Shown here piece by piece: positions 12,218 to 60,078 of a stretch of 64,000 bases of DNA. Each line of letters starts with the position of its first letter. The stretch's first letter is position 1. The notes beneath the pieces are model-generated. The model searched no databases and was not told the DNA's origin. It saw only the letters and a list, made by a program, of their open reading frames with translations. The stretch covers positions 1,216,001-1,280,000 of the forward strand of contig CM000434.1 in assembly GCA_000165345.1 (NCBI GenBank), written 5' to 3'. The translations under genes were made by a program, and so were the position numbers.

Positions 12218-15180
12218 NANANNNANNGNTNANAATNGNANANNANNNNNNTNNAANNAGNTNTTNNNNNNNNNNNCNNNANNTNGNNNATANNGNNNNC
12301 TNANNNNANNNNTNNNAATANNNANAATNNNANNTNNNTANTGCANANTCNNNTNGTNNNATGNAANNNTNCNNNTTCANNTNNANNANNTTNNNNNTAN
12401 TNNNTNNGNTTTATTNNNNGNGNANNNNANNANNNNNNATNNNNNNNNNNNNCNATAANNANNNTNTTNNAAAANNNGNNANNTCCNANNNNNTTNNNNN
12501 ANNNAAANNNNNNNNNTNNNGANNNGNNNNCNNNNANNNNNNNNNNNNNTNATNNNNNANTGAANNNNNNANTTNTNNNTNNTTTAAGNNGTNNNNTNNN
12601 ANNNNNATNNNNNNNNNTNNNTNNNNNNNNNNNNNNNNNNNNTNTCNNTNNNNNNNTCTNTCTNNNNTNNNTNNNTNTNTNNNNNTNTNNNNNTNTNTNC
12701 NNNNCTCNGATNANNNNNNNNNTTACTNNCTNNNANNCNTAAANTNNNNTTANATTNANNNNNTGNNCNNGATTANNNNNNNNANAANNNTAANNNCNAN
12801 NNNNNNTANNNCNNNNNNNACTNNNNNAANNNACCNGANNNTNNNNANNNNNNNTTNNNTNNNAAAGNNNNAAAAAAANNNNNNNCTTNNTCNNTNANAA
12901 ANNTNNNNCNNANCNCNNNNNAANNNTGNTNCNNNANNNNCNNNNNCGNNTNNTNNNTNATNANNNNNNTNNNTNNNNNNNNANNGNTANNNNNAATNNA
13001 NNNNNNNTNNTGNNNNNNATNTANAAAANNNTNNNNANTTNTNTCANNANNTNNNNNTNNNNANNNNTNNNNANTNNNNGNTNTNNATNNANNNAANNAN
13101 NNTNTNNNNNTCANNNNANNNNNNNNTNTNNNGGANNATNNNNNNNANNNAAANANNNNCNNNNATAANGNNNNNCNAAANNNTACANNNNTNGNNNNTT
13201 NNANANTNNCTNNNNTTANTTANTNNNNANTNCNANAANTTANNTNATTNNNANNNNNATANANNNNNCNNTNACAAGNATNNTNNGNNNNNCTNNNTNN
13301 AATNNAANANTNANACNANNNNNNNNNNTNNNNANACNNNNNNAANNNCCAANTNAANNNNNATNNANNNTNNNNNATNNGNANATGATGANNNTAANNN
13401 NNANGANNTANNNNANNNNNNNTNNNANNTNANNNNNNNNNNANTNCNNANNNNTNTNNTNNNNNNNNTNNNNCANNTTNTANNTCNNNTNNCANNNNNN
13501 NNNANNANNNTTNNGANNNGNNNNNAAANNNTNNTTATNNNTTNCTNNNNNNNNNNNANCCNNANTNCTANAGANANNCNNNNNNANACNATNNGNANNN
13601 NATTNNANCTNNATGNNNGNNNACNNNNNNNTNNTNNNGNANTNTNNNNNNNNNNTNNTNTNNNANTNANNNNNNNNNGNANANNNTTNATNNNTNNAAN
13701 ANNANATNNNNNNNTNNNTTANTNNNANNAANTANANNANNTNTTGANNNANNTNCNNANNNNNTANANTNATNNTNTNANNNANTNTNANNNNNTTCNT
13801 TNTNANNNNNGNTAAATNNNNNATNNNNGNNNNANNANNTNNNNTNGNNNTTANNNNNANTGAANNNNNAANNNATTNNTNTNTNNANTNNTNNAATTAT
13901 NCTNAATNNTTATNNGAANANNNATNNNANNTTTTGGANANNNAATNNAAAAGNNNACNNCNNATNNNNNANNANNNNNNANCNNNTAATAANAANATAA
14001 NNNNANNANNNATNNNNNNNTANATTTAANNNNTNNNNNNNTNNNNNTANNTNNNNCTATTNTTNAACTNNTTTTNNCNNNNNNNANTNNNNNNAATANT
14101 TNTNTCANTNNTAAANNNNNGNNNANNNANTNNNATNTNANNNNAGNCNANNNNNNNNNNANTCNAATNNCNNNTNTNATNATNANNNNNNANNTGAAAN
14201 TNGNNTNNATNNTGANANANAANAAANANNAAANANAANNATGNNNNNNNNAATNNNANNNNANANAAATTANANTNNATNNNNNANTNNNNNTTNTTNN
14301 AGNNNAATTNATNNNNNANNNNNANTNNTGANNNANANTNANNANTNNTNNNNNGNNNTANGNTNTANGTNTNANTNNCNATTATNNNNNNNTNNNNTNN
14401 NNNANNNNNTNNNNGNNNNNTGNTGNCNTGNNATNNTANNNNTNNNATNATNTNAANNNANTNNNNNANNNNNTNTNNNANNNNNTNATANNANNNNACN
14501 AANNNNNNNNNNNNNNNNNNNTNNNANNNNNNTNNTCNNANNNCATNNNANNNANGNAAAGANTNNANANTNNNNTNNNNNANNNAANNTNACNNNATTN
14601 NANNNTNNNNNTNTANTNNNNAAANNAATNNANTNGNTNNNANNNTTTNNNNTNNANNNNNNTNNNNNTAANTNAATNANTNNANNANNNNNTNNNCNGN
14701 NNNTNAANNNNNNNNTNNNTANNNGGNGNNANNNNNTNNNNNNNANNNTNNNNNNNNNATNNNNTNNNANNNNCANNANANNNNNCNNATNNNTNNATNN
14801 NNGNNNNNTNATNNNTNNNNNAANTNNNNNANTANANNNAATGTANTNATNNNNNNNNANTTGNANGANNGNNTANATNNNTNNNANANNNNNNNNNNNN
14901 NNTTNATANNTNCTNNNANANNNNTTGATATACAGTNGNNTATNAGNTNTCAATANNCNANANTATGTTGAAANTATGNAANTTNNTNTAANNANGGNTN
15001 NACTGNNTNTTTNNNTTGGAAAAGATGTCNANANGANCNNNTANTCAGCNNTNANNNAGANTCNNAGANANGCNTATNNTTCNGCNNACNAAGTNGANTG
15101 TATCGNAGTCAGNNTGTNATGNTNTTGNTCCNNNTGNAGTTCANGNNNTCNNATGANGNANTNGATCNNGAANTAGANNA
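12218..15180. other. N-masked or ambiguous block. About 70-80% of positions are n, with masking density falling off toward the 3' edge. Contents are unknown.
   Basis: Direct observation. Every ORF with X residues here comes from n being translated as X. Confidence 0.95.
12643..12706. repeat. Probable polypyrimidine (CT-rich) low-complexity tract inside the masked block.
   Basis: Every unmasked base in this roughly 60-nt stretch is t or c (tntc..tctntct..tntntnt..ctc). Confidence 0.3.
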
Positions 15181-15337
15181 ANATNANGAAGAAAAATTAC
15201 ATATTAAAGCTATTAATACTCCTCATGGTATACCATATTGGCTTGTTCCAGTATTTGAATTTCTCAAATTACCAGCTTCCAGTACTTTAAGTAGTCTAGA
15301 TTCAGCAGAGTTTGGATCAGTTACTTTTTCATAATTT
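15181..15337 (+). CDS. C-terminal fragment of a gene whose body lies in the masked region (...EEKLHIKAINTPHGIPYWLVPVFEFLKLPASSTLSSLDSAEFGSVTFS, then stop).
   Basis: Unmasked stop-free tail ending at TAA 15335..15337. Its frame differs from the 11175 ORF, so the link to that gene is unresolved. Confidence 0.3.
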
Positions 15338-15541: not shown

Positions 15542-17470
15542 ATGGATGATATTTATTTGGCAGAATTTCATGGTTTTATTGATGAAAAAACATGGGAAAT
15601 TGCTAAATTAAGTATACATTATCTTCATACACTTAAAGAAAATATAATAAAAGTCTTGGAAAATGGAGGTACACTTGAGAAATATTCTCATTTAAGAGAT
15701 TTAATTGAAATTGTAAGAATATGTATTTTACATGGTATTTTAATTGGAATAAATTATTTAAATAAATCAGAAGATAATTACAAATATGATTATGGTTCTT
15801 TGTATCATTTTGTAAGAATATTCCCAGAACTTAATGAATTAGGAAAAGTTGATGATATGTGTTTTTTATCATTTTTATTAATGAATAAAGTATTTACTGG
15901 ATTTCTTGAATCTATTAAAAATCCTTCATCAAAATGGAATCAAAGAATAACAATGTATTATCATCATGCTAGTATTTTGAGATATAGTGAATTCTTGAAA
16001 GAGTTTATTTTAATAATCAACAGTTTTGAAAATTGTCTAAGAATCAAAAATTTCCATATTCCTAATAATTGGATGACTTATTTTGCAAAATTATCATTAA
16101 GATGGAATAATTTTGGAAATGATCAAACAACAGAAATATCAATTATTAATGAGAATTTTAAGAATATTAAATATAAAACAAAACAATATAATCATCATGA
16201 TCAAAAAATTCTTAAAAATCTTACAAATATTAATGATATAGAAATTGATTCTAAATCTACTTTAAGTATTTTATTAAAGCAAGAATTTGAACAAAAGATC
16301 AATTTTAAAGATTATAATATATTTGATGATAGAGCTTTTATTTCAAAATCAAGTATATTAAATTCAAATAATGAATTGGATCCAGATATATTAAGTGATA
16401 ATAATGATCATATTGTTGTATATAATGAAAGAAATATTCAAGATATTGAAGATTTATTGGGGGATATGTGGTGTCCAATGTTTGATTATTCTCCTATATC
16501 TGAAAAACTTTATTTAGAAAATGAAGAAGAAAATTTTGTAAATTATGATAATGAAAATAATAATAATAATAACAATAATGACAATAATAATGAATATAAT
16601 AAATTACAAGAAAAAGATGAAAAAAATAATATAGAGTTAAATAATATTTATAATTATGAAGATATTAATCATTATATAAATATTAATAATGAATCAGATT
16701 TATCTAATTTCAAGATTAATTATGAATTAAAATTGATAAAAAATGATAATAATGAATTGAAAGAAAGGTATTTATCTTATTATCATATTCCATTAAATAA
16801 ACAAGAAGAAAGGTTAATATTAGAATTACAAGATTATAAATGTTTTACAAAACATTGTGAAAATATATTAGAATTTGATCAAGAATCTAAATTGAATTTC
16901 TGTTGTTTTACTGGTTATTATTATTGTGATTATTGTTATGGATCAAATACATGTTCAATTTTACCAGGTCTTCTTGCAAAATATGGAAATTTAACACCAG
17001 TTCCAGTATCAATTAAATCTAAAGAAAAATTAAAAAGTCTTGAAAATATACCATTGATTAAGATTCATTCATTAACAGCTGAAATATGGGAATCTAATAA
17101 GTATATTAAACAATTGGTATATTTGAAATCATATTTATCATCATTATTAATTATGAATGATAATAATAATAATAATAATAATAAATGTCAATATAAAGAA
17201 TCAATAAAAAGAAGATTATTAAGAGAATATGATATAATATATCAATTTGGTAGATATGAATATTTTTCAGTAAATCAATTAACAGAAATAGCTTATGAGA
17301 TATTTTCACAAGAGGTTACAATGTATTCAAATGAAACAAATATTCAAATTACTGTAAGAGAAATGAAAAATATTGCAATCAATTGGAGAAAACATTTATT
17401 AAAATGTATACATTGTCAATATCAAAATAAAAATTCAAAGAAAGATTTAATTTTATCTTTAAAAGAGTAA
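15542..17470 (+). CDS. Rubicon/PLEKHM1/DEF8-family protein: RUN-like N-terminal domain plus a C-terminal cysteine-rich Rubicon-homology (RH) zinc-finger domain, with poly-Asn insertions.
   Basis: ATG start. The C-terminal FCCFTGYYYCDYCYGSNTCSILPGLLAKYGNLTPVPVS...LIKIHSLTAEIW...KQLVYLKSYL...CIHCQ aligns with Rubicon [38 protein letters not shown]...LLIKIWNDPL...CMLCQ. The N-terminus is a RUN-like helical region. The middle has Asn runs encoded by (AAT)n. Confidence 0.5.
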   Translation: MDDIYLAEFHGFIDEKTWEIAKLSIHYLHTLKENIIKVLENGGTLEKYSHLRDLIEIVRICILHGILIGINYLNKSEDNYKYDYGSLYHFVRIFPELNELGKVDDMCFLSFLLMNKVFTGFLESIKNPSSKWNQRITMYYHHASILRYSEFLKEFILIINSFENCLRIKNFHIPNNWMTYFAKLSLRWNNFGNDQTTEISIINENFKNIKYKTKQYNHHDQKILKNLTNINDIEIDSKSTLSILLKQEFEQKINFKDYNIFDDRAFISKSSILNSNNELDPDILSDNNDHIVVYNERNIQDIEDLLGDMWCPMFDYSPISEKLYLENEEENFVNYDNENNNNNNNNDNNNEYNKLQEKDEKNNIELNNIYNYEDINHYININNESDLSNFKINYELKLIKNDNNELKERYLSYYHIPLNKQEERLILELQDYKCFTKHCENILEFDQESKLNFCCFTGYYYCDYCYGSNTCSILPGLLAKYGNLTPVPVSIKSKEKLKSLENIPLIKIHSLTAEIWESNKYIKQLVYLKSYLSSLLIMNDNNNNNNNKCQYKESIKRRLLREYDIIYQFGRYEYFSVNQLTEIAYEIFSQEVTMYSNETNIQITVREMKNIAINWRKHLLKCIHCQYQNKNSKKDLILSLKE

Positions 17471-17510
17471 AATATATTTATATTTATTTCAAGATTCAAA
17501 CTTTCTTTAT

Positions 17511-17580
<70 letters not shown>

Positions 17581-17850
17581 TATTTGCTGAATAAATATCC
17601 AAATATTTCCCCTCATGGTGCCATTTTGGATTTAATAATTATTGCAAAAATGCATTTATTGAATGGAAATCAATTATTAATATTATAATTTCTAATTGGA
17701 AATTCTTTTTTTGTTCTTGAAGAAAAAAAACTCTCAAATCACTCAGTTATTTAACTTTATTATTATTTTTCTCAACTTATTTTAATTTTATATTTAAACA
17801 AAAAAAAAAAAAAAGAAAAAGTTATCAAAAAGTTAAATACTTAATTTTGA

Positions 17851-19558
17851 ATGTGGAATTTTTATAAAAAAATACCAAATATTAATTCATTTTATTCAGT
17901 TGGAAATGGAGAAGAAATAATACAAAGATTAAAAGTCAATAAGAAAGCATTATTAGTTTCAGGAGAAACTGAAGATTATAAAGGATGTACAAATGATATT
18001 ATAGAATATGCAGTAATACTTTCAAATATATATAAATTTAAAGAAATAAGAATTTTATTAAGTGAAAGTATCAGAAATTTTATATGGAAATTTTATATCA
18101 TTATCATTAAGTAGAATTAATGGAGCAATAATACAAATAGTAAGATTGTCAAAAAAATCTCTCAAAGAAGGATTTCAATGGTTAATTTCTATGGAAGAAA
18201 ATACAGGAAATGAAAACTATTACTCAGAATTTTCAAATATATATAGAGGAAATGATAATTTTGGGATGAATTTCTCAAATAATATTTATGATTTAGTATT
18301 TGTTTATTCTGGTCCAGTAAAATTTTCAAAGAATGATATTAATATTGATAATAATACAAATATAGAAAATGAAGCAGTTAACGGTCCATTTTTTTTAATT
18401 TCAAAAGGAAAAAAAAATGATAAAGATGAATATGATTATGATGATTATATAAGTTTTTCAGATTTTGATAGAATGATATTAGAAACAAATTCAAATAATA
18501 AAGGCAATTTGACATGTTTTTTGGATTGTAATTATTCATATATGTTTTTATCAGATTATACAAAAGGAGAAGAATATTGTAATAATAATAATAATAATAA
18601 TAATAGTAATTATGAAAATATTCGATTTAATCATCATCGAATATCAACAATGCCAGAAATAAATAATAATAATAATAATAAAGATCTCTTAAATATTAAT
18701 CCAAATAAGACATCTTATTACAAAAAGAGAGATCTTTCTGTAATAATATTAGCATCATGTTCTTCTTCAATACAAGATTCACAAGAAATTAAATTATGTT
18801 CAAATAATGGTATAGGATTATCAATAATATATAGAAGATTATTTTCATATTTTATTCAATCAATAATAAGATATCATTTTGAAAATATAATAAATAAAGA
18901 TAATAATCAAAATTTTCAATTAATTCCAAGAATTACTTTAAAATCTTTAATTGAAGAGATTTCAAGAAATATGTTTCATTATTTAACAAAAAATCATTTA
19001 AAGAATCAAATTCCAATATTATTAGCATCAGTTGGAATTTCAACACAAGATAATATATTATTAAATAATGATATGAATAATATAAATATGATGAATTATT
19101 TAAATGATGGTGATTATATTATTGGTAATTTTGATCAAAAAAATAAAATTAATTCTAATATATCATTATCATCATCAAATAATATAATGAATTTTAATAA
19201 ATTTCCAATAAAGAATTTAAATATGGGAAATAATAAAAGAATATATAATAATAATAATAATAATAATTGTTATATGTATCAAAGAAATATTCCAAATATT
19301 AGTATTAGTCCAAATTCTAATTCTAATTTGATTCAAGAGATTAATCAATTAAGATCAGAATTATCTTATTTAAAACAAACTATCAATTCTGAAAATATTG
19401 CTCGAAATTTCAATTATAATGAAAATAATTATAATAGAATAAATAATGGATATAAAAGTTATTGTCCTGTTCAAATTTTCAATTCAGATACTATTTTTAA
19501 AAAAAGTGTAAAACCATCATCAACTATAACTCATCATAGAACATTCACATCAAAGTAA
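17851..19558 (+). CDS. Asn-rich hypothetical protein. The gene is split between two reading frames with a break near 18062..18114, which is either an unannotated short intron or a frameshift.
   Basis: An ATG-initiated 87-codon stop-free ORF (17851..18114, frame 1) overlaps a 498-codon ORF (frame 2) whose track start is GTG. An 87-codon stop-free stretch in AT-rich DNA argues that the upstream piece is coding. Candidate intron 18069..18111 (GTATCA...TTAAG) or 18111..18144 (GTAGAA...GTAAG) would fuse the frames. Confidence 0.35.
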
Positions 19559-29631: not shown

Positions 29632-29647
29632 CTTTTGGCGCCAAAAT
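29632..29647. promoter_or_regulatory. Palindromic E2F-like box cttttggcgccaaaat in the divergent promoter between Spt6 and the ABCF gene.
   Basis: TTTGGCGCCAAA is a perfect E2F-type palindrome, and it lies in a 750-bp spacer between divergent genes. Confidence 0.45.
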
Positions 29648-54170: not shown

Positions 54171-56495
54171 CTAGCTTGCAATCTTATAGTTCCTTAATGT
54201 AAATGCAGTCAGGAAGTATCCAAGAATTCTGAAGGCGAGTCCCAAGCAAATAGCAACTATAATGTTAAGCCAAATATCGGTTGTCCAGAGATTAAATTGA
54301 TCTAGGAAGAAGTCTGTAGTAACTTTTGAGAATCTTTCTCCTGGAATGAATACTGATAATATCATACCGGTATAAGTATATCTTACAGTGGATATCCATC
54401 CTAACCATCTGATCCAAACAGGAATTTGATCAAATGTAACAAAGTAGCCTGCAAGTAAAGCAAAAACTAAACTGAATAGTGGGAAAATCTGGAATACAGT
54501 ATTTGTACTCGTACTAAACGAGGAAAGTACATATGAGAATGAGTATGAAAGAAATACTCCAGCTTGAGTAGAAGCAGTCCAAAGTCCAAACTGGTCAGCC
54601 AAAGAAGTTTTGAGATTCTGATCATAAACTCCAGTCATGAAGTAAACGATTGTTGTATATACCAATGTCTGAATATGTTGAACTGGGAAGTCTGCAACCA
54701 TCCTCGAAAAATAGTAAGAAATAGGGGTATACATCTTAGAATAGGTTTCTTTGTTCATTACAAAACGCTCATCAACGGTTACAACAAGCCCCTTAATAGA
54801 AAAGAATGAGATACTTGTTGATACAAAGAAGATCAAACCAATGATATTTCTTGCATTTTGAGCAGTATCAAAATCGTTTTCTCCAGCTCTTGGGAGAGAA
54901 AAGAAGACTCCTCCCATGATAATGGCCATAATAGTGTTAACAAGTAGTAATCCAACTGTTACATTTGGATCTCTCCAAGTATTGAGAAGTATTCTCTTTG
55001 TAAGATATTTAACCTCTCTACAGAAACGTATAGGACCTGGGATTGGTGATAACCTTGCAATTTTTTGACAAATTGTCTGAGTTGGAAGGATTTTCATATT
55101 TGCAGAATCAATATTTCCATAATTCTCAAATAAGATTTGAGGATTACTTGTATCAACGCATCTTAAGTGATTATCGATGCCTTTCTTAACATTTTCTCCA
55201 TATACTGATTGTTCATAAATCTTATGGAACTCATCCAAAGATTCAATAGAGGGAACTTCCAGTCCAAACAGTTTCATTGAAATATCATCTCTTGATACTG
55301 ATTTTTCGAACTCATAAAGTGGTTCTTCTCCATCCAGATTTCGTTCAGCTAATTCAATTTCCTTTATAGTTGCATCCTTGGGTACATATATGGAGGCTGA
55401 AATTACTTTCTTATGTACTAACTCAACAAGAGACGTAGCATCTATAATGAAATCTGCTGGATTATAGTTATCAGGGAAGGGTGTAACAACATCATTAAAG
55501 AAGGTAACAACGTCCATTGGAGATCCTTGTCCTAAAACAAATCCTCTACTCAAGAGAGTAATTTTATCAAACAAGGCAAAAGTCTGCGATCTTGGGGTAT
55601 GAATAGAACAAATCACAATAATTCCAGTGGTATGGGCGAGAGACGAGAGATATGATAGTAAATCATGAGCTCTAGCAGCATCCAAACCTGTTGTTGGTTC
55701 ATCCAAAAATAATATTGGAGGATTCTGAATCAATTCCAAGGCAATACTAAGTCTTTTCATCTCACCACCAGAAATTCCTTTCTTTGAAATTCCTCCAACG
55801 TATGTATCTTGTACATGTCTGAGTCCCATAATATCAAGAATTTCAATAATCTTTTCCTCACGATCCTTCTTAGAATAATGTGGAAGTCTTAGACCAGCTA
55901 CAATGTCCATTGTCTCTTTAATTGTTAGATAAGGAAGTAAGTAATCATCTTGTACCACCATTCTAGTCAAATACCCTAAATCTATATCAGTAAATCCATT
56001 AATAGCCACGGAACCCTTAATATTATATTCTCTCCCTTTGAGTCTTCCAGAAAGAGCATTCAGTAATGTTGACTTTCCTGATCCAGAAGGGCCCATAATT
56101 CCAATAAGTTGTCCTGGAGAAGCCATAAAATTCACGCTCTTTAGGATTGGAACCACCTTTTTACGGAAAAACTTATCACGTTTGGTGAGTTCAACTGTCA
56201 AGTTTTTTGCTACCAATGTTACTTGTTTTGAAACATTCATTCCCAAATTTATATTGATTGACATGTCCATTGAATGGTCTGTAACTGAGCACCTAACAGC
56301 TGCAGCACTTGATCCACCTTTAGCGTCATAAGAAGATTGATCTCCACCACCTTTGCTACTATTTAAGTCCAAGTTATTTCCTCCTACTGTTAATCCATTG
56401 TCCTTAATCTCAACGGAAGACTTTTTGCTGGGGTTTTTGGGGTCGTCAAAGCTAAATTTAGCTACAACCAAATTTACTACCAAAAAAGTTAACAA
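54171..56495 (-). CDS. ABCG (White-family) half-transporter: N-terminal ABC ATPase followed by a 6-TM domain. The start is uncertain.
   Basis: Walker A GPSGSGKSTLLNALSGR. Signature plus Walker B ISGGEMKRLSIALELIQNPPILFLDEPTTGLD. C-terminal ABC2-type membrane domain with about 6 hydrophobic helices. The track start is TTG (56495) and the first in-frame ATG is 56270, but about 83 stop-free codons lie upstream of that ATG. Confidence 0.85.
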   Translation of the reverse strand: MLTFLVVNLVVAKFSFDDPKNPSKKSSVEIKDNGLTVGGNNLDLNSSKGGGDQSSYDAKGGSSAAAVRCSVTDHSMDMSININLGMNVSKQVTLVAKNLTVELTKRDKFFRKKVVPILKSVNFMASPGQLIGIMGPSGSGKSTLLNALSGRLKGREYNIKGSVAINGFTDIDLGYLTRMVVQDDYLLPYLTIKETMDIVAGLRLPHYSKKDREEKIIEILDIMGLRHVQDTYVGGISKKGISGGEMKRLSIALELIQNPPILFLDEPTTGLDAARAHDLLSYLSSLAHTTGIIVICSIHTPRSQTFALFDKITLLSRGFVLGQGSPMDVVTFFNDVVTPFPDNYNPADFIIDATSLVELVHKKVISASIYVPKDATIKEIELAERNLDGEEPLYEFEKSVSRDDISMKLFGLEVPSIESLDEFHKIYEQSVYGENVKKGIDNHLRCVDTSNPQILFENYGNIDSANMKILPTQTICQKIARLSPIPGPIRFCREVKYLTKRILLNTWRDPNVTVGLLLVNTIMAIIMGGVFFSLPRAGENDFDTAQNARNIIGLIFFVSTSISFFSIKGLVVTVDERFVMNKETYSKMYTPISYYFSRMVADFPVQHIQTLVYTTIVYFMTGVYDQNLKTSLADQFGLWTASTQAGVFLSYSFSYVLSSFSTSTNTVFQIFPLFSLVFALLAGYFVTFDQIPVWIRWLGWISTVRYTYTGMILSVFIPGERFSKVTTDFFLDQFNLWTTDIWLNIIVAICLGLAFRILGYFLTAFTLRNYKIAS

Positions 56496-56947
56496 AAAGT
56501 TGACTCGCCTAGCTAGAACTTACCATCATTGTTGTTACTCATCCTAAATATTAATTTTTAAAGACAAAATCAGAATTTTTATCTTCCTATTATTAATGAG
56601 CGAAGTATCAGCATGAGGGGTAAATCCAAATCTTAGATTTAAGAGGGGAGAGGCGCTTCACAGATAAACAAAAAAAAAATTAATTCAAGAACGAACTTGA
56701 ATAGCTCCAAATTATCTAGAAAACATAAATTAATTTTTCTAAAACAATCTTATCTCTTTCAATTTCCATGCCTAACAGGATTATTTTTCTATATATTTAC
56801 CTACTCCCTCTATTTCGTCATCGCACACAAACTGAATATAAACTCACTTGAACCAAATTAGTTCTTAATTATTAACTAACTCTAAATTAATTCAAAACCC
56901 ATTTTACCTGATAAAATCAATGGTGCCATTAGATATACCGGCCATAA

Positions 56948-58612: not shown

Positions 58613-58700
58613 ATAATATGTAGTATAAATAGTATATATTAAGAAAATTAGTATAATTAAACCCCCTTCTTTTTCATTATTATTCATTATAGCATTAGAT

Positions 58701-58727
58701 TGCATGCCGAAATTTTGGCGCGAAGAT
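58701..58727. promoter_or_regulatory. gattgcatgccgaaattttggcgcgaagat: adjacent GCATGC and E2F-like TTTTGGCGCG elements upstream of the 58836 gene.
   Basis: Read directly. Confidence 0.35.
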
Positions 58728-58835
58728 CTTTATTTACATTTACAGTCTTTCAGAGATGTGTATTTTAGAATCTTAACCTTAGAAATATTTATATTAAAAA
58801 TATTACTGATAAATAGTTTAATTTAATAAGATCCC

Positions 58836-60078
58836 ATGGGTAAGTTTGTTTGGCTTTCATAAATAAGACGAATAACCAAACTAATTAATTTAATTTAAAG
58901 ATCCACAATTCAGGTTTAATCTTAGGCCAGTGATTCAGAATAGAAATAATTCAGGTACTCCAAAAGTATTTATTAGAAGTACAAGTACAGGAAATAATGT
59001 TCAAGGTATTTCTAAAACACCAATAGTTCCTTACAGACAAATGTATGGAACCAATTTTAATGACCTCCAAGGAGTATATTCAATGGTTTCTCCCCTTCAA
59101 AGTTTTAGAACACCTCGATTGGAGAATCAAAACCACAATAATTTTTTTCCTGAAAATAAAAATTACCTACAAATTAATACTGAGAGACTAATTCATTCAA
59201 GTAAAAATTTTATAGATGATTCTAAAATACTAACATATAGGTCAGGATCTTTTATACAAGCTAATTCTCAAGGGTACAAACCAAATGAAACACTCCAAAG
59301 CACAAACTATTCAGACAACACAACTGTTTCTGAAAGTCAACTTTCTTCAAACCAATTTTTTGAATCAGAGAATGATAGTTTCATTTCGCAGAATGTAAAA
59401 CCAAGCAAGAATTTAGTCAATAATGCTACTAATACCTTAGATAACAAATCTGAAAATGAATTAAAACAACTAATTGATGACCCAAAAGATCTTTCTTCCA
59501 CAAAAATTGAAAATAAAACAGATAATCGTATAGAACTAGATTTGAAAATCCCAAAAAATATTTCATTGGAAGAAATCTGTGAAACTGAACAATTTGACTA
59601 TTTTCCTCAACTTATTAATGAAGTAAATGAAAAAATAGATATGGAAGAAATAGAATATAATACTGAAGATATAAATCATAACTTTGACAAGGAGTCAATT
59701 ATATCCTCAAGCGATACTCAAGGATGTATGGAAATATGTATCACTCCTCCCTTATCATCAGAACTAATTACATCTAACAATTTTTATTTCCCAGAAGATA
59801 ACAAAGAAGAGAGTCAGAATGGTTCAATTTTAAGAACAAATAAAGATTTTTGTGAAGAATTTACAGATATAGAAACTCATAAAAATGATATTCTGGAGAA
59901 TCAGAATATTTTAAGAGAGAATGGAAAAAGAAAATTCAGATTTTCATCGCTTTGTCCTAAACTGCTCAACTGTCTATTTCCATGGATACGTTCTGAACAA
60001 TATTTTGAAGATCACGACCAACCAATTTTCTATATCACATCAAATAACGAAGAATCTCAAAAACTAACAAATAACTAG
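58836..60078 (+). CDS. Hypothetical protein. The proposed model has a 4-nt first micro-exon (ATGG), a 61-nt intron, and a second exon 58901..60078.
   Basis: The track ORF begins at GTG 58930, but its frame is open back to 58894 with no ATG before residue 38. At 58836 the sequence ATGG|GTAAGT ... TTTAAAG|AT fits a canonical donor and acceptor. Phase 1 joins into the open frame as M-D-P-Q-F-R... The alternative start is the internal ATG 59041. Confidence 0.4.

Follow-up and report, generated by a model that had tools for sequence, protein, structure and literature searches.

The window analysed here is a stretch of 64,000 nucleotides of Cryptosporidium parvum chromosome 6, and all positions given below are positions within it. 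It is AT-rich, with coding parts of about 30-35% GC, and carries long, intron-poor open reading frames (ORFs). Its portion from 48836 to 64000 matches chromosome 6 base for base in three C. parvum assemblies. Within this portion, on the plus strand, lies the orthologue of cgd6_5370 (cpbgf_6005370 / CPATCC_0016980), assigned as such on the basis of locus-tag numbering. The 94% protein identity between C. parvum and C. hominis fits the published comparison of cgd6_5370 in these two species (identity 0.942, omega 0.44; PMC4637869 supplement). The features of the gene, most of which are crowded around its first codon, are as follows:

58836..58839, plus strand: coding part of exon 1, consisting of ATG and G, the first base of codon 2 (read from the sequence)
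58840..58900, plus strand: GT-AG intron of 61 nt, 23% GC, phase 1 (sequence, orthologues and annotated spans)
58840-58845, plus strand: donor GTAAGT (sequence)
58880-58885, plus strand: candidate branch-site-like element ACTAAT (by likeness to CTRAY only)
58894-58900, plus strand: acceptor TTTAAAG, with the AG itself at 58899-58900
58901..60078, plus strand: exon 2, the remainder of the CDS from bases 2-3 of codon 2 to the stop TAG at 60076-60078
59041..59043, plus strand: internal codon for Met49, start of the 345-aa Iowa II model (393 - 48 = 345 = XP_627855.1)

As exon 2 opens with AT, the joined G^AT (^ marks the splice junction) gives an Asp codon at position 2, and the intron is therefore in phase 1. 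The spliced CDS of 1182 nt translates into 393 amino acids (MDPQFRFNLRP...) with zero internal stops. Read without splicing, the ATG at 58836 is followed to a stop after only 8 codons (MGKFVWLS). On its 5' side the frame of exon 2 is closed by a TAA at 58891-58893; reading on from there, an ATG in frame is first met at 59041. The GC content of the intron is close to the published genome mean of 22%. The ACTAAT element lies 16 nt upstream of the acceptor, and elements with a comparable likeness to CTRAY occur in some of the orthologues.

An earlier, sequence-only reading of this DNA had proposed a gene start consisting of ATGG, the GTAAGT donor, a 61-nt intron, the TTTAAAG acceptor and a phase-1 entry into the downstream frame, and every one of these elements was found on reading the sequence exactly where it had been placed. 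The ATG-less lead of that frame, which it had put at 37 codons, actually comprises 49 open codons before ATG 59041; the smaller figure arose because the count was taken from a mechanically called GTG start at 58930. Its description of this arrangement as the only clean solution formally overstates the case: it is the sole one with a consensus donor and the sole conserved pair, but 45 combinations of ATG, GT and AG exist that keep the frame. Among these 45, a consensus GTAAGT donor is found only at 58840 and cross-species conservation only for 58840/58900, and the next acceptors compatible with the frame would remove conserved residues. With 20 copies of the hexamer GTAAGT in the window and 21 expected, its frequency was rejected as a sign of many hidden introns; the 10-mer ATGGGTAAGT occurs once in the window against 0.09 expected.

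No Pfam domain was found in the 393-aa protein, and profile searches of 5.8 billion and 1.84 billion proteins returned homologues in Cryptosporidium only, so that a function could not be assigned in this way. The idea that the intron or its surroundings harbour a structured or known RNA was likewise rejected, as the only Rfam match was a snoRNA-like one below threshold (17.8 bits, against a gathering score of 42). This match sits within the coding region of the upstream gene.

Gene models of cgd6_5370 in public annotation

The spliced product is identical, residue for residue, to QOY41422.1, WKS78653.1 and WRK33143.1, and the three C. parvum assemblies annotate a gene of 1243 nt that encodes 393 aa. 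Subtracting the CDS (1243 - 1182 = 61) leaves a single 61-nt intron in these models. The junction of 58839 with 58901 is thereby upheld by the identity of its product to the current curated C. parvum proteins, and it is kept in ten species. In addition, for the annotation of one of the three assemblies, IOWA-ATCC (GCA_015245375.1; Baptista et al. 2022), the authors claim RNA-seq support for every intron, which for 58840-58900 is an annotation-wide statement by those authors and not a locus-specific record. The literature on cgd6_5370 consists only of a phylogenomic gene list and a C. parvum/C. hominis dN/dS table and holds no locus-specific transcript record. Models that contain the intron are also public for other species:

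C. hominis CHM_6g5370: span 1243 nt
chipmunk genotype I ELE39_003558: span 1244 nt
C. felis HWI79_3662: span 1232 nt for 389 aa
C. ubiquitum: span 1237 nt for 393 aa
C. bovis: span 1093 nt for 343 aa

The current models of these other species are alike in their N-termini (MDPQ, MDPR or MNPQ), and the intron that they imply measures 55-62 nt and follows a 4-nt coding exon 1. Nothing in the present analysis differs from the current curated models (cpbgf_6005370, CPATCC_0016980 and others). What the sequence-only reading found was correct but already on record, the gene model being public for the same sequence.

Older and automatic models lack the intron. The original 2004 Iowa II model, XP_627855.1, comprises 345 aa counted from ATG 59041. 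The intron is likewise missing from models of 345 aa in C. hominis, 344 aa in C. tyzzeri and 331 aa in C. meleagridis, and from a 455-aa read-through in C. canis; the entries concerned are XP_627855.1, XP_665154.1, TRY51244.1, cmbei_6005570 and OIY81_2894. With at least five public models of cgd6_5370 orthologues missing it, the sequence-only reading was right to say that introns of this kind are difficult for gene finders. Two of the models appear to be wrong in ways of their own: OIY81_2894 of C. canis (455 aa) runs through both the promoter block described below and the intron, and cmbei_6005570 of C. meleagridis (331 aa) begins 62 residues too late. The conserved junction ATGG^GTRAGT...TAG^ATCC gives proteins of 392 aa in C. 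canis and 393 aa in C. meleagridis. For the annotation of the gene this means that the modern C. parvum cgd6_5370 model is right and the 2004 model is 48 residues short, and that cmbei_6005570, OIY81_2894, CTYZ_00001742 and the older C. hominis models are to be corrected to the ATGG^GTRAGT junction. The understanding of Cryptosporidium gene structure remains unchanged, and the practical value is small.

Conservation of the junction across Cryptosporidium

Comparison with orthologous loci, which the sequence-only reading had named as a check, disclosed the same junction in ten Cryptosporidium species: C. parvum, C. hominis, C. meleagridis, chipmunk genotype I, C. canis, the SRR31860986 species, C. 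felis, C. bovis, C. ubiquitum and C. andersoni. In every one of them a GTRAGT...AG intron of 55-64 nt occupies the identical phase-1 position. Nine species have GTAAGT as their donor, and C. meleagridis has GTGAGT. ATGG is invariant in eight of the ten, and the acceptor side AG^ATCC is common to all the intestinal-clade species sampled. In C. ubiquitum the start reads ATGA^GTAAGT, so that residue 2 is Asn instead of Asp. In C. andersoni a 4-nt exon 1 was considered and rejected, since the donor follows 19 coding nucleotides (ATGTCTAATTCATGTGCTA); the order there is GTAAGT, a 61-nt intron and TTTTTAG^ATCCA. The C. andersoni junction has the same phase-1 position, immediately before a conserved Pro, and an hhalign alignment of C. 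parvum residues 4-73 with C. andersoni residues 10-78 (E = 5e-6) puts it at the homologous residue. The 4-nt coding exon 1 is common to the nine intestinal-clade species sampled, C. andersoni being the sole sample of the gastric clade. The sequence comparison indicates that the intron has occupied this position since the common ancestor of the genus.

Between its conserved ends the intron evolves as non-coding DNA. Its lengths in the ten species (61, 61, 56, 62, 55, 64, 64, 62, 61 and 61 nt) do not differ by multiples of three. Its interior, with 10 gapped columns, shows about 50% identity, against 75% identity without gaps in the first 140 nt of exon 2. Splicing restores one continuous frame from the ATG in C. 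parvum and in all nine other species. The unspliced reading ends early in all ten, after 5-8 codons in eight of them and after 28 codons, at a stop downstream of the intron, in the SRR31860986 species and C. bovis. C. parvum and C. hominis end the intron in AAG, and the other eight species end it in TAG; AAG is a derived and weaker variant of TAG.

We are almost certain that 58840-58900, at the extreme 5' end of the C. parvum cgd6_5370 CDS, is a GT-AG spliceosomal intron of the ordinary U2 type. A point against this reading is that C. parvum and C. hominis have AAG in place of the usual YAG acceptor.

One alternative would add to this explanation, namely that a real intron is also retained as a regulatory device, either as an on/off gate operated by splicing or as an enhancer of expression. 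As the unspliced mRNA gives a short peptide only, the efficiency of splicing or stage-specific retention would gate the output of the gene, and the early end of the unspliced reading in ten of ten species is consistent with such a gate. So are the weak AAG acceptor of C. parvum and C. hominis, the genus-wide conservation of the position in an intron-poor genome, and the adjacent ABC-transporter gene, which has a similar start-proximal intron with an acceptor annotated in two ways. However, the interior of the intron is not conserved. Neutral models of intron loss predict that surviving introns are biased towards the 5' end, and conserved position alone therefore does not show function. We consider a regulatory role of this kind unlikely. 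The more specific proposal, that the intron would have been kept for a function since before the split of the gastric and intestinal clades and would possibly be regulated by stage through its AAG acceptor, is in our judgement equally doubtful.

Very much less probable is the absence of splicing altogether, with an mRNA colinear with the genome, a translation start at ATG 59041 (345 aa) and an upstream open frame that is due to chance. This is the start of the deposited Iowa II model, and corresponding downstream starts were chosen in the models of C. hominis and C. tyzzeri. Moreover, a stop-free run of 49 codons is expected with P of about 0.007-0.035, calculated from local or window frequencies of stop triplets, and a chance of 0.7-3.5% is small, yet not negligible at one locus. 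However, the 46 codons that precede ATG 59041 in exon 2 (codons 3-48) are under strong purifying selection, with dN/dS of about 0.05-0.2 in informative pairs (0.05-0.19). They fall in one of the three best-conserved blocks of the protein, and its residues 1-30 are among the most conserved of all. In the seven-species alignment codon 59041 is ATG in C. parvum and C. hominis only; the five remaining, more distant species have ATA, ATA, ATT, GTG and AAT at this point, and the first in-frame ATG does not come before codon 63 in C. ubiquitum, codon 74 in C. bovis and codon 72 in C. andersoni. In addition, ATGG^GTRAGT and AG^ATCC are kept while the sequence between them diverges. Translation from ATG 59041, which the sequence-only reading had itself set against its proposal, is countered by this purifying selection upstream and by the non-conservation of the ATG.

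Least credible of all, to the point of being negligible, is an unspliced mRNA whose conserved N-terminus is translated either by non-AUG initiation or from an ATG further upstream in the same frame, in the manner of the 455-aa C. canis protein: the exon-2 frame of C. canis does remain open for 99 codons upstream and reach an ATG (GenBank model OIY81_2894), but it is closed by a stop 1-5 codons upstream of codon 3 in the nine other species, the N-terminus thus added in C. canis (an 84-residue extension, MHKFWREDLNLH...) is the translated E2F-like promoter block, C. canis too carries the signals ATGG^GTAAGT...TTTGTAG^ATCC, and non-AUG initiation leaves unexplained a near-invariant ATGGGTRAGT within flanks that are about 50% identical.

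The upstream region and other features of the window

The DNA preceding the spliced gene contains a conserved block, and the neighbouring gene on the minus strand has an intron of its own. The features concerned are:

58701..58707, plus strand: TGCATGC, an ApiAP2-type motif and, judging from its sequence, a possible promoter element
58713..58749, plus strand: conserved block about 120 nt before the ATG, a likely promoter (conservation and E2F-like motif)
58713-58724, plus strand: putative E2F/DP-like site TTTTGGCGCGAA, which opens the conserved block
20182, 29634/29638 and 51505: other E2F-like TTTGGCGC sites, 5' intergenic
54171-56542, minus strand: ABC-transporter gene, with its CDS start at 56542
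56542-56524, minus strand: coding exon 1 of the ABC-transporter gene, ATGAGTAACAACAATGATG, with GTAAGT at 56523-56518

The mean pairwise identity of the block at 58713-58749 is 90% among seven species, compared with 54-57% in the flanking non-coding DNA, and TTTGGCGC[GA]AAGATCT is invariant in all ten species. TTTTGGCGCGAA matches the E2F/DP site in its [C/G]GCGC[G/C] core and in its T-rich and A-rich flanks. E2F is the most abundant motif of promoters and open chromatin in C. parvum (PMC3734150; bioRxiv 10.1101/2025.01.17.633476). TTTGGCGC is present 5 times in the window, against 0.35 copies expected, and every copy is 5' intergenic; the pair at 29634/29638 is palindromic and lies between two divergent genes. 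The block beside the cgd6_5370 orthologue, which at 37 nt far exceeds the length of an E2F site, is 90% conserved across the genus. Its extended form, GGCGCRAAGATCT, was considered as a repeated module, and this was rejected as it occurs only once in the window. TGCATGC at 58701..58707 is conserved in the closer species only, and TGCAT/TGCATGCA is an over-represented ApiAP2 motif of C. parvum upstream regions (PMC3734150). From the conserved E2F-like block upstream of ATGG we infer that the promoter and the transcription start are situated upstream of the gene start as well.

Two further observations concern the same intergenic DNA. There is an upstream ATG at 58756, which may open a short uORF if the 5' UTR extends that far. 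Directly after the stop of the upstream gene (the cgd6_5360 orthologue) lies AAATTAGTATAATTA, at 58640-58665, which is near-invariant in seven species and may be a 3'-end processing signal.

The sequence-only reading had further suspected that this genome holds more introns than a first pass would indicate. Re-annotation has raised the share of intron-bearing genes from 4.3% to 10.8% (PMC4637869), and the general suspicion was therefore historically correct. Within the window, annotated gene span was compared with product length from 12.6 to 64 kb, a part with about 20 annotated genes, of which 15 could be checked and where 39-49 kb carries automatic gene calls only. Introns were found in two genes only, the cgd6_5370 orthologue and the neighbouring ABC-transporter gene, a number in line with the published 10.8%. 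Across the 20 long ORFs in the window, the first ATG is preceded by a median of about 6 codons. Three outliers have a long ATG-less lead, namely the cgd6_5370 orthologue with 49 codons, the ABC transporter with 83 and an indel-split ORF with 43. A long ATG-less open stretch before the first ATG can serve as a heuristic that flags a 5' intron, and in the annotation-checked part of the window it recovered both genes with annotated 5' introns.

The acceptor of the ABC-transporter intron is disputed among the C. parvum annotations, in that a 47-nt intron leads to a product of 774 aa and a 62-nt intron to one of 769 aa. This conflict reflects either alternative use of 3' splice sites or an annotation error.

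The low GC content at 12-20 kb was considered as a possible centromere and rejected, given the N-masking at 12218-15187 and the AT-rich, Asn-rich genes at 15.5-19.6 kb. The stretch 12218-15187 consists of about 60% N among real bases, which produces the apparent 5-7% GC there; it lies inside a large gene (1326 aa in GCA_031892065.1) and has a net deficit of 1 base relative to that assembly. Positions 15542-19558, on the plus strand, hold two genes of about 18-20% GC, unusually low for this genome, with long Asn runs. One encodes 642 aa, including a Rubicon-homology domain (PF13901), and the other, at 17852-19558, encodes 568 aa. Near 18066 the sequence is AGTGAAAGTATC in the window and AGTGAAGTATC in GCA_031892065.1; the extra A, which is probably an assembly or strain indel, splits the 568-aa gene into the overlapping ORFs 17851-18114 and 18062-19558.

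Proposed expression of the gene and comparison with known intron and exon classes

On the reading preferred here, an ordinary spliceosomal intron directly behind the start codon, transcription would start between about 58730 and 58835, probably driven by the E2F-like element (58713-58749), and exon 1 would consist of a 5' UTR followed by ATGG. The U2-type spliceosome would remove 58840-58900 and join G58839 to A58901, as the annotated gene model has it. Initiation at ATG 58836 would then yield the 393-aa protein MDPQFRFNLRP..., and the same ATG would yield only an 8-residue peptide if splicing did not take place.

The intron corresponds to the U2-type GT-AG class both in its GTRAGT donor and in its mode of evolution, which is that of non-coding DNA with conserved position and boundaries. 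Its place in the gene invites comparison with the start-codon introns, which lie in phase 0 between codons 1 and 2 and are over-represented in genes for conserved, short and lysine-rich proteins, ribosomal proteins among them (Nielsen and Wernersson 2006, PMC1626468). The cgd6_5370 intron is similar to these in being located at the start of the CDS behind a first coding exon of a few bases. In contrast to them, it is in phase 1 and follows base 4, and the protein of its host gene, which has 393 aa, is genus-specific and contains no Pfam domain, is different from the typical hosts.

A tiny coding stretch before the junction is also what cgd6_5370 has in common with internal micro-exons, and the sequence-only reading had called the ATGG a micro-exon. 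However, these 4 nt start with the initiator ATG, and no intron is annotated on their 5' side. The annotated gene models begin at the ATG, and the DNA upstream is a conserved promoter-like block and not coding sequence. The label is inaccurate, because exon 1 would comprise a 5' UTR and 4 nt, and not 4 nt in total; the 4 nt are its coding portion. With a first exon of this composition, which the gene structure suggests, no special mechanism of micro-exon recognition would be needed.

The ABC-transporter gene next to it offers a comparison within the window itself. Like cgd6_5370, it has a GTAAGT donor, a short intron and a short coding exon 1, and its intron, too, was missed by mechanical ORF calling. 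It differs from cgd6_5370 in the size of that coding exon, which is 19 nt in the ABC-transporter gene and 4 nt in cgd6_5370.
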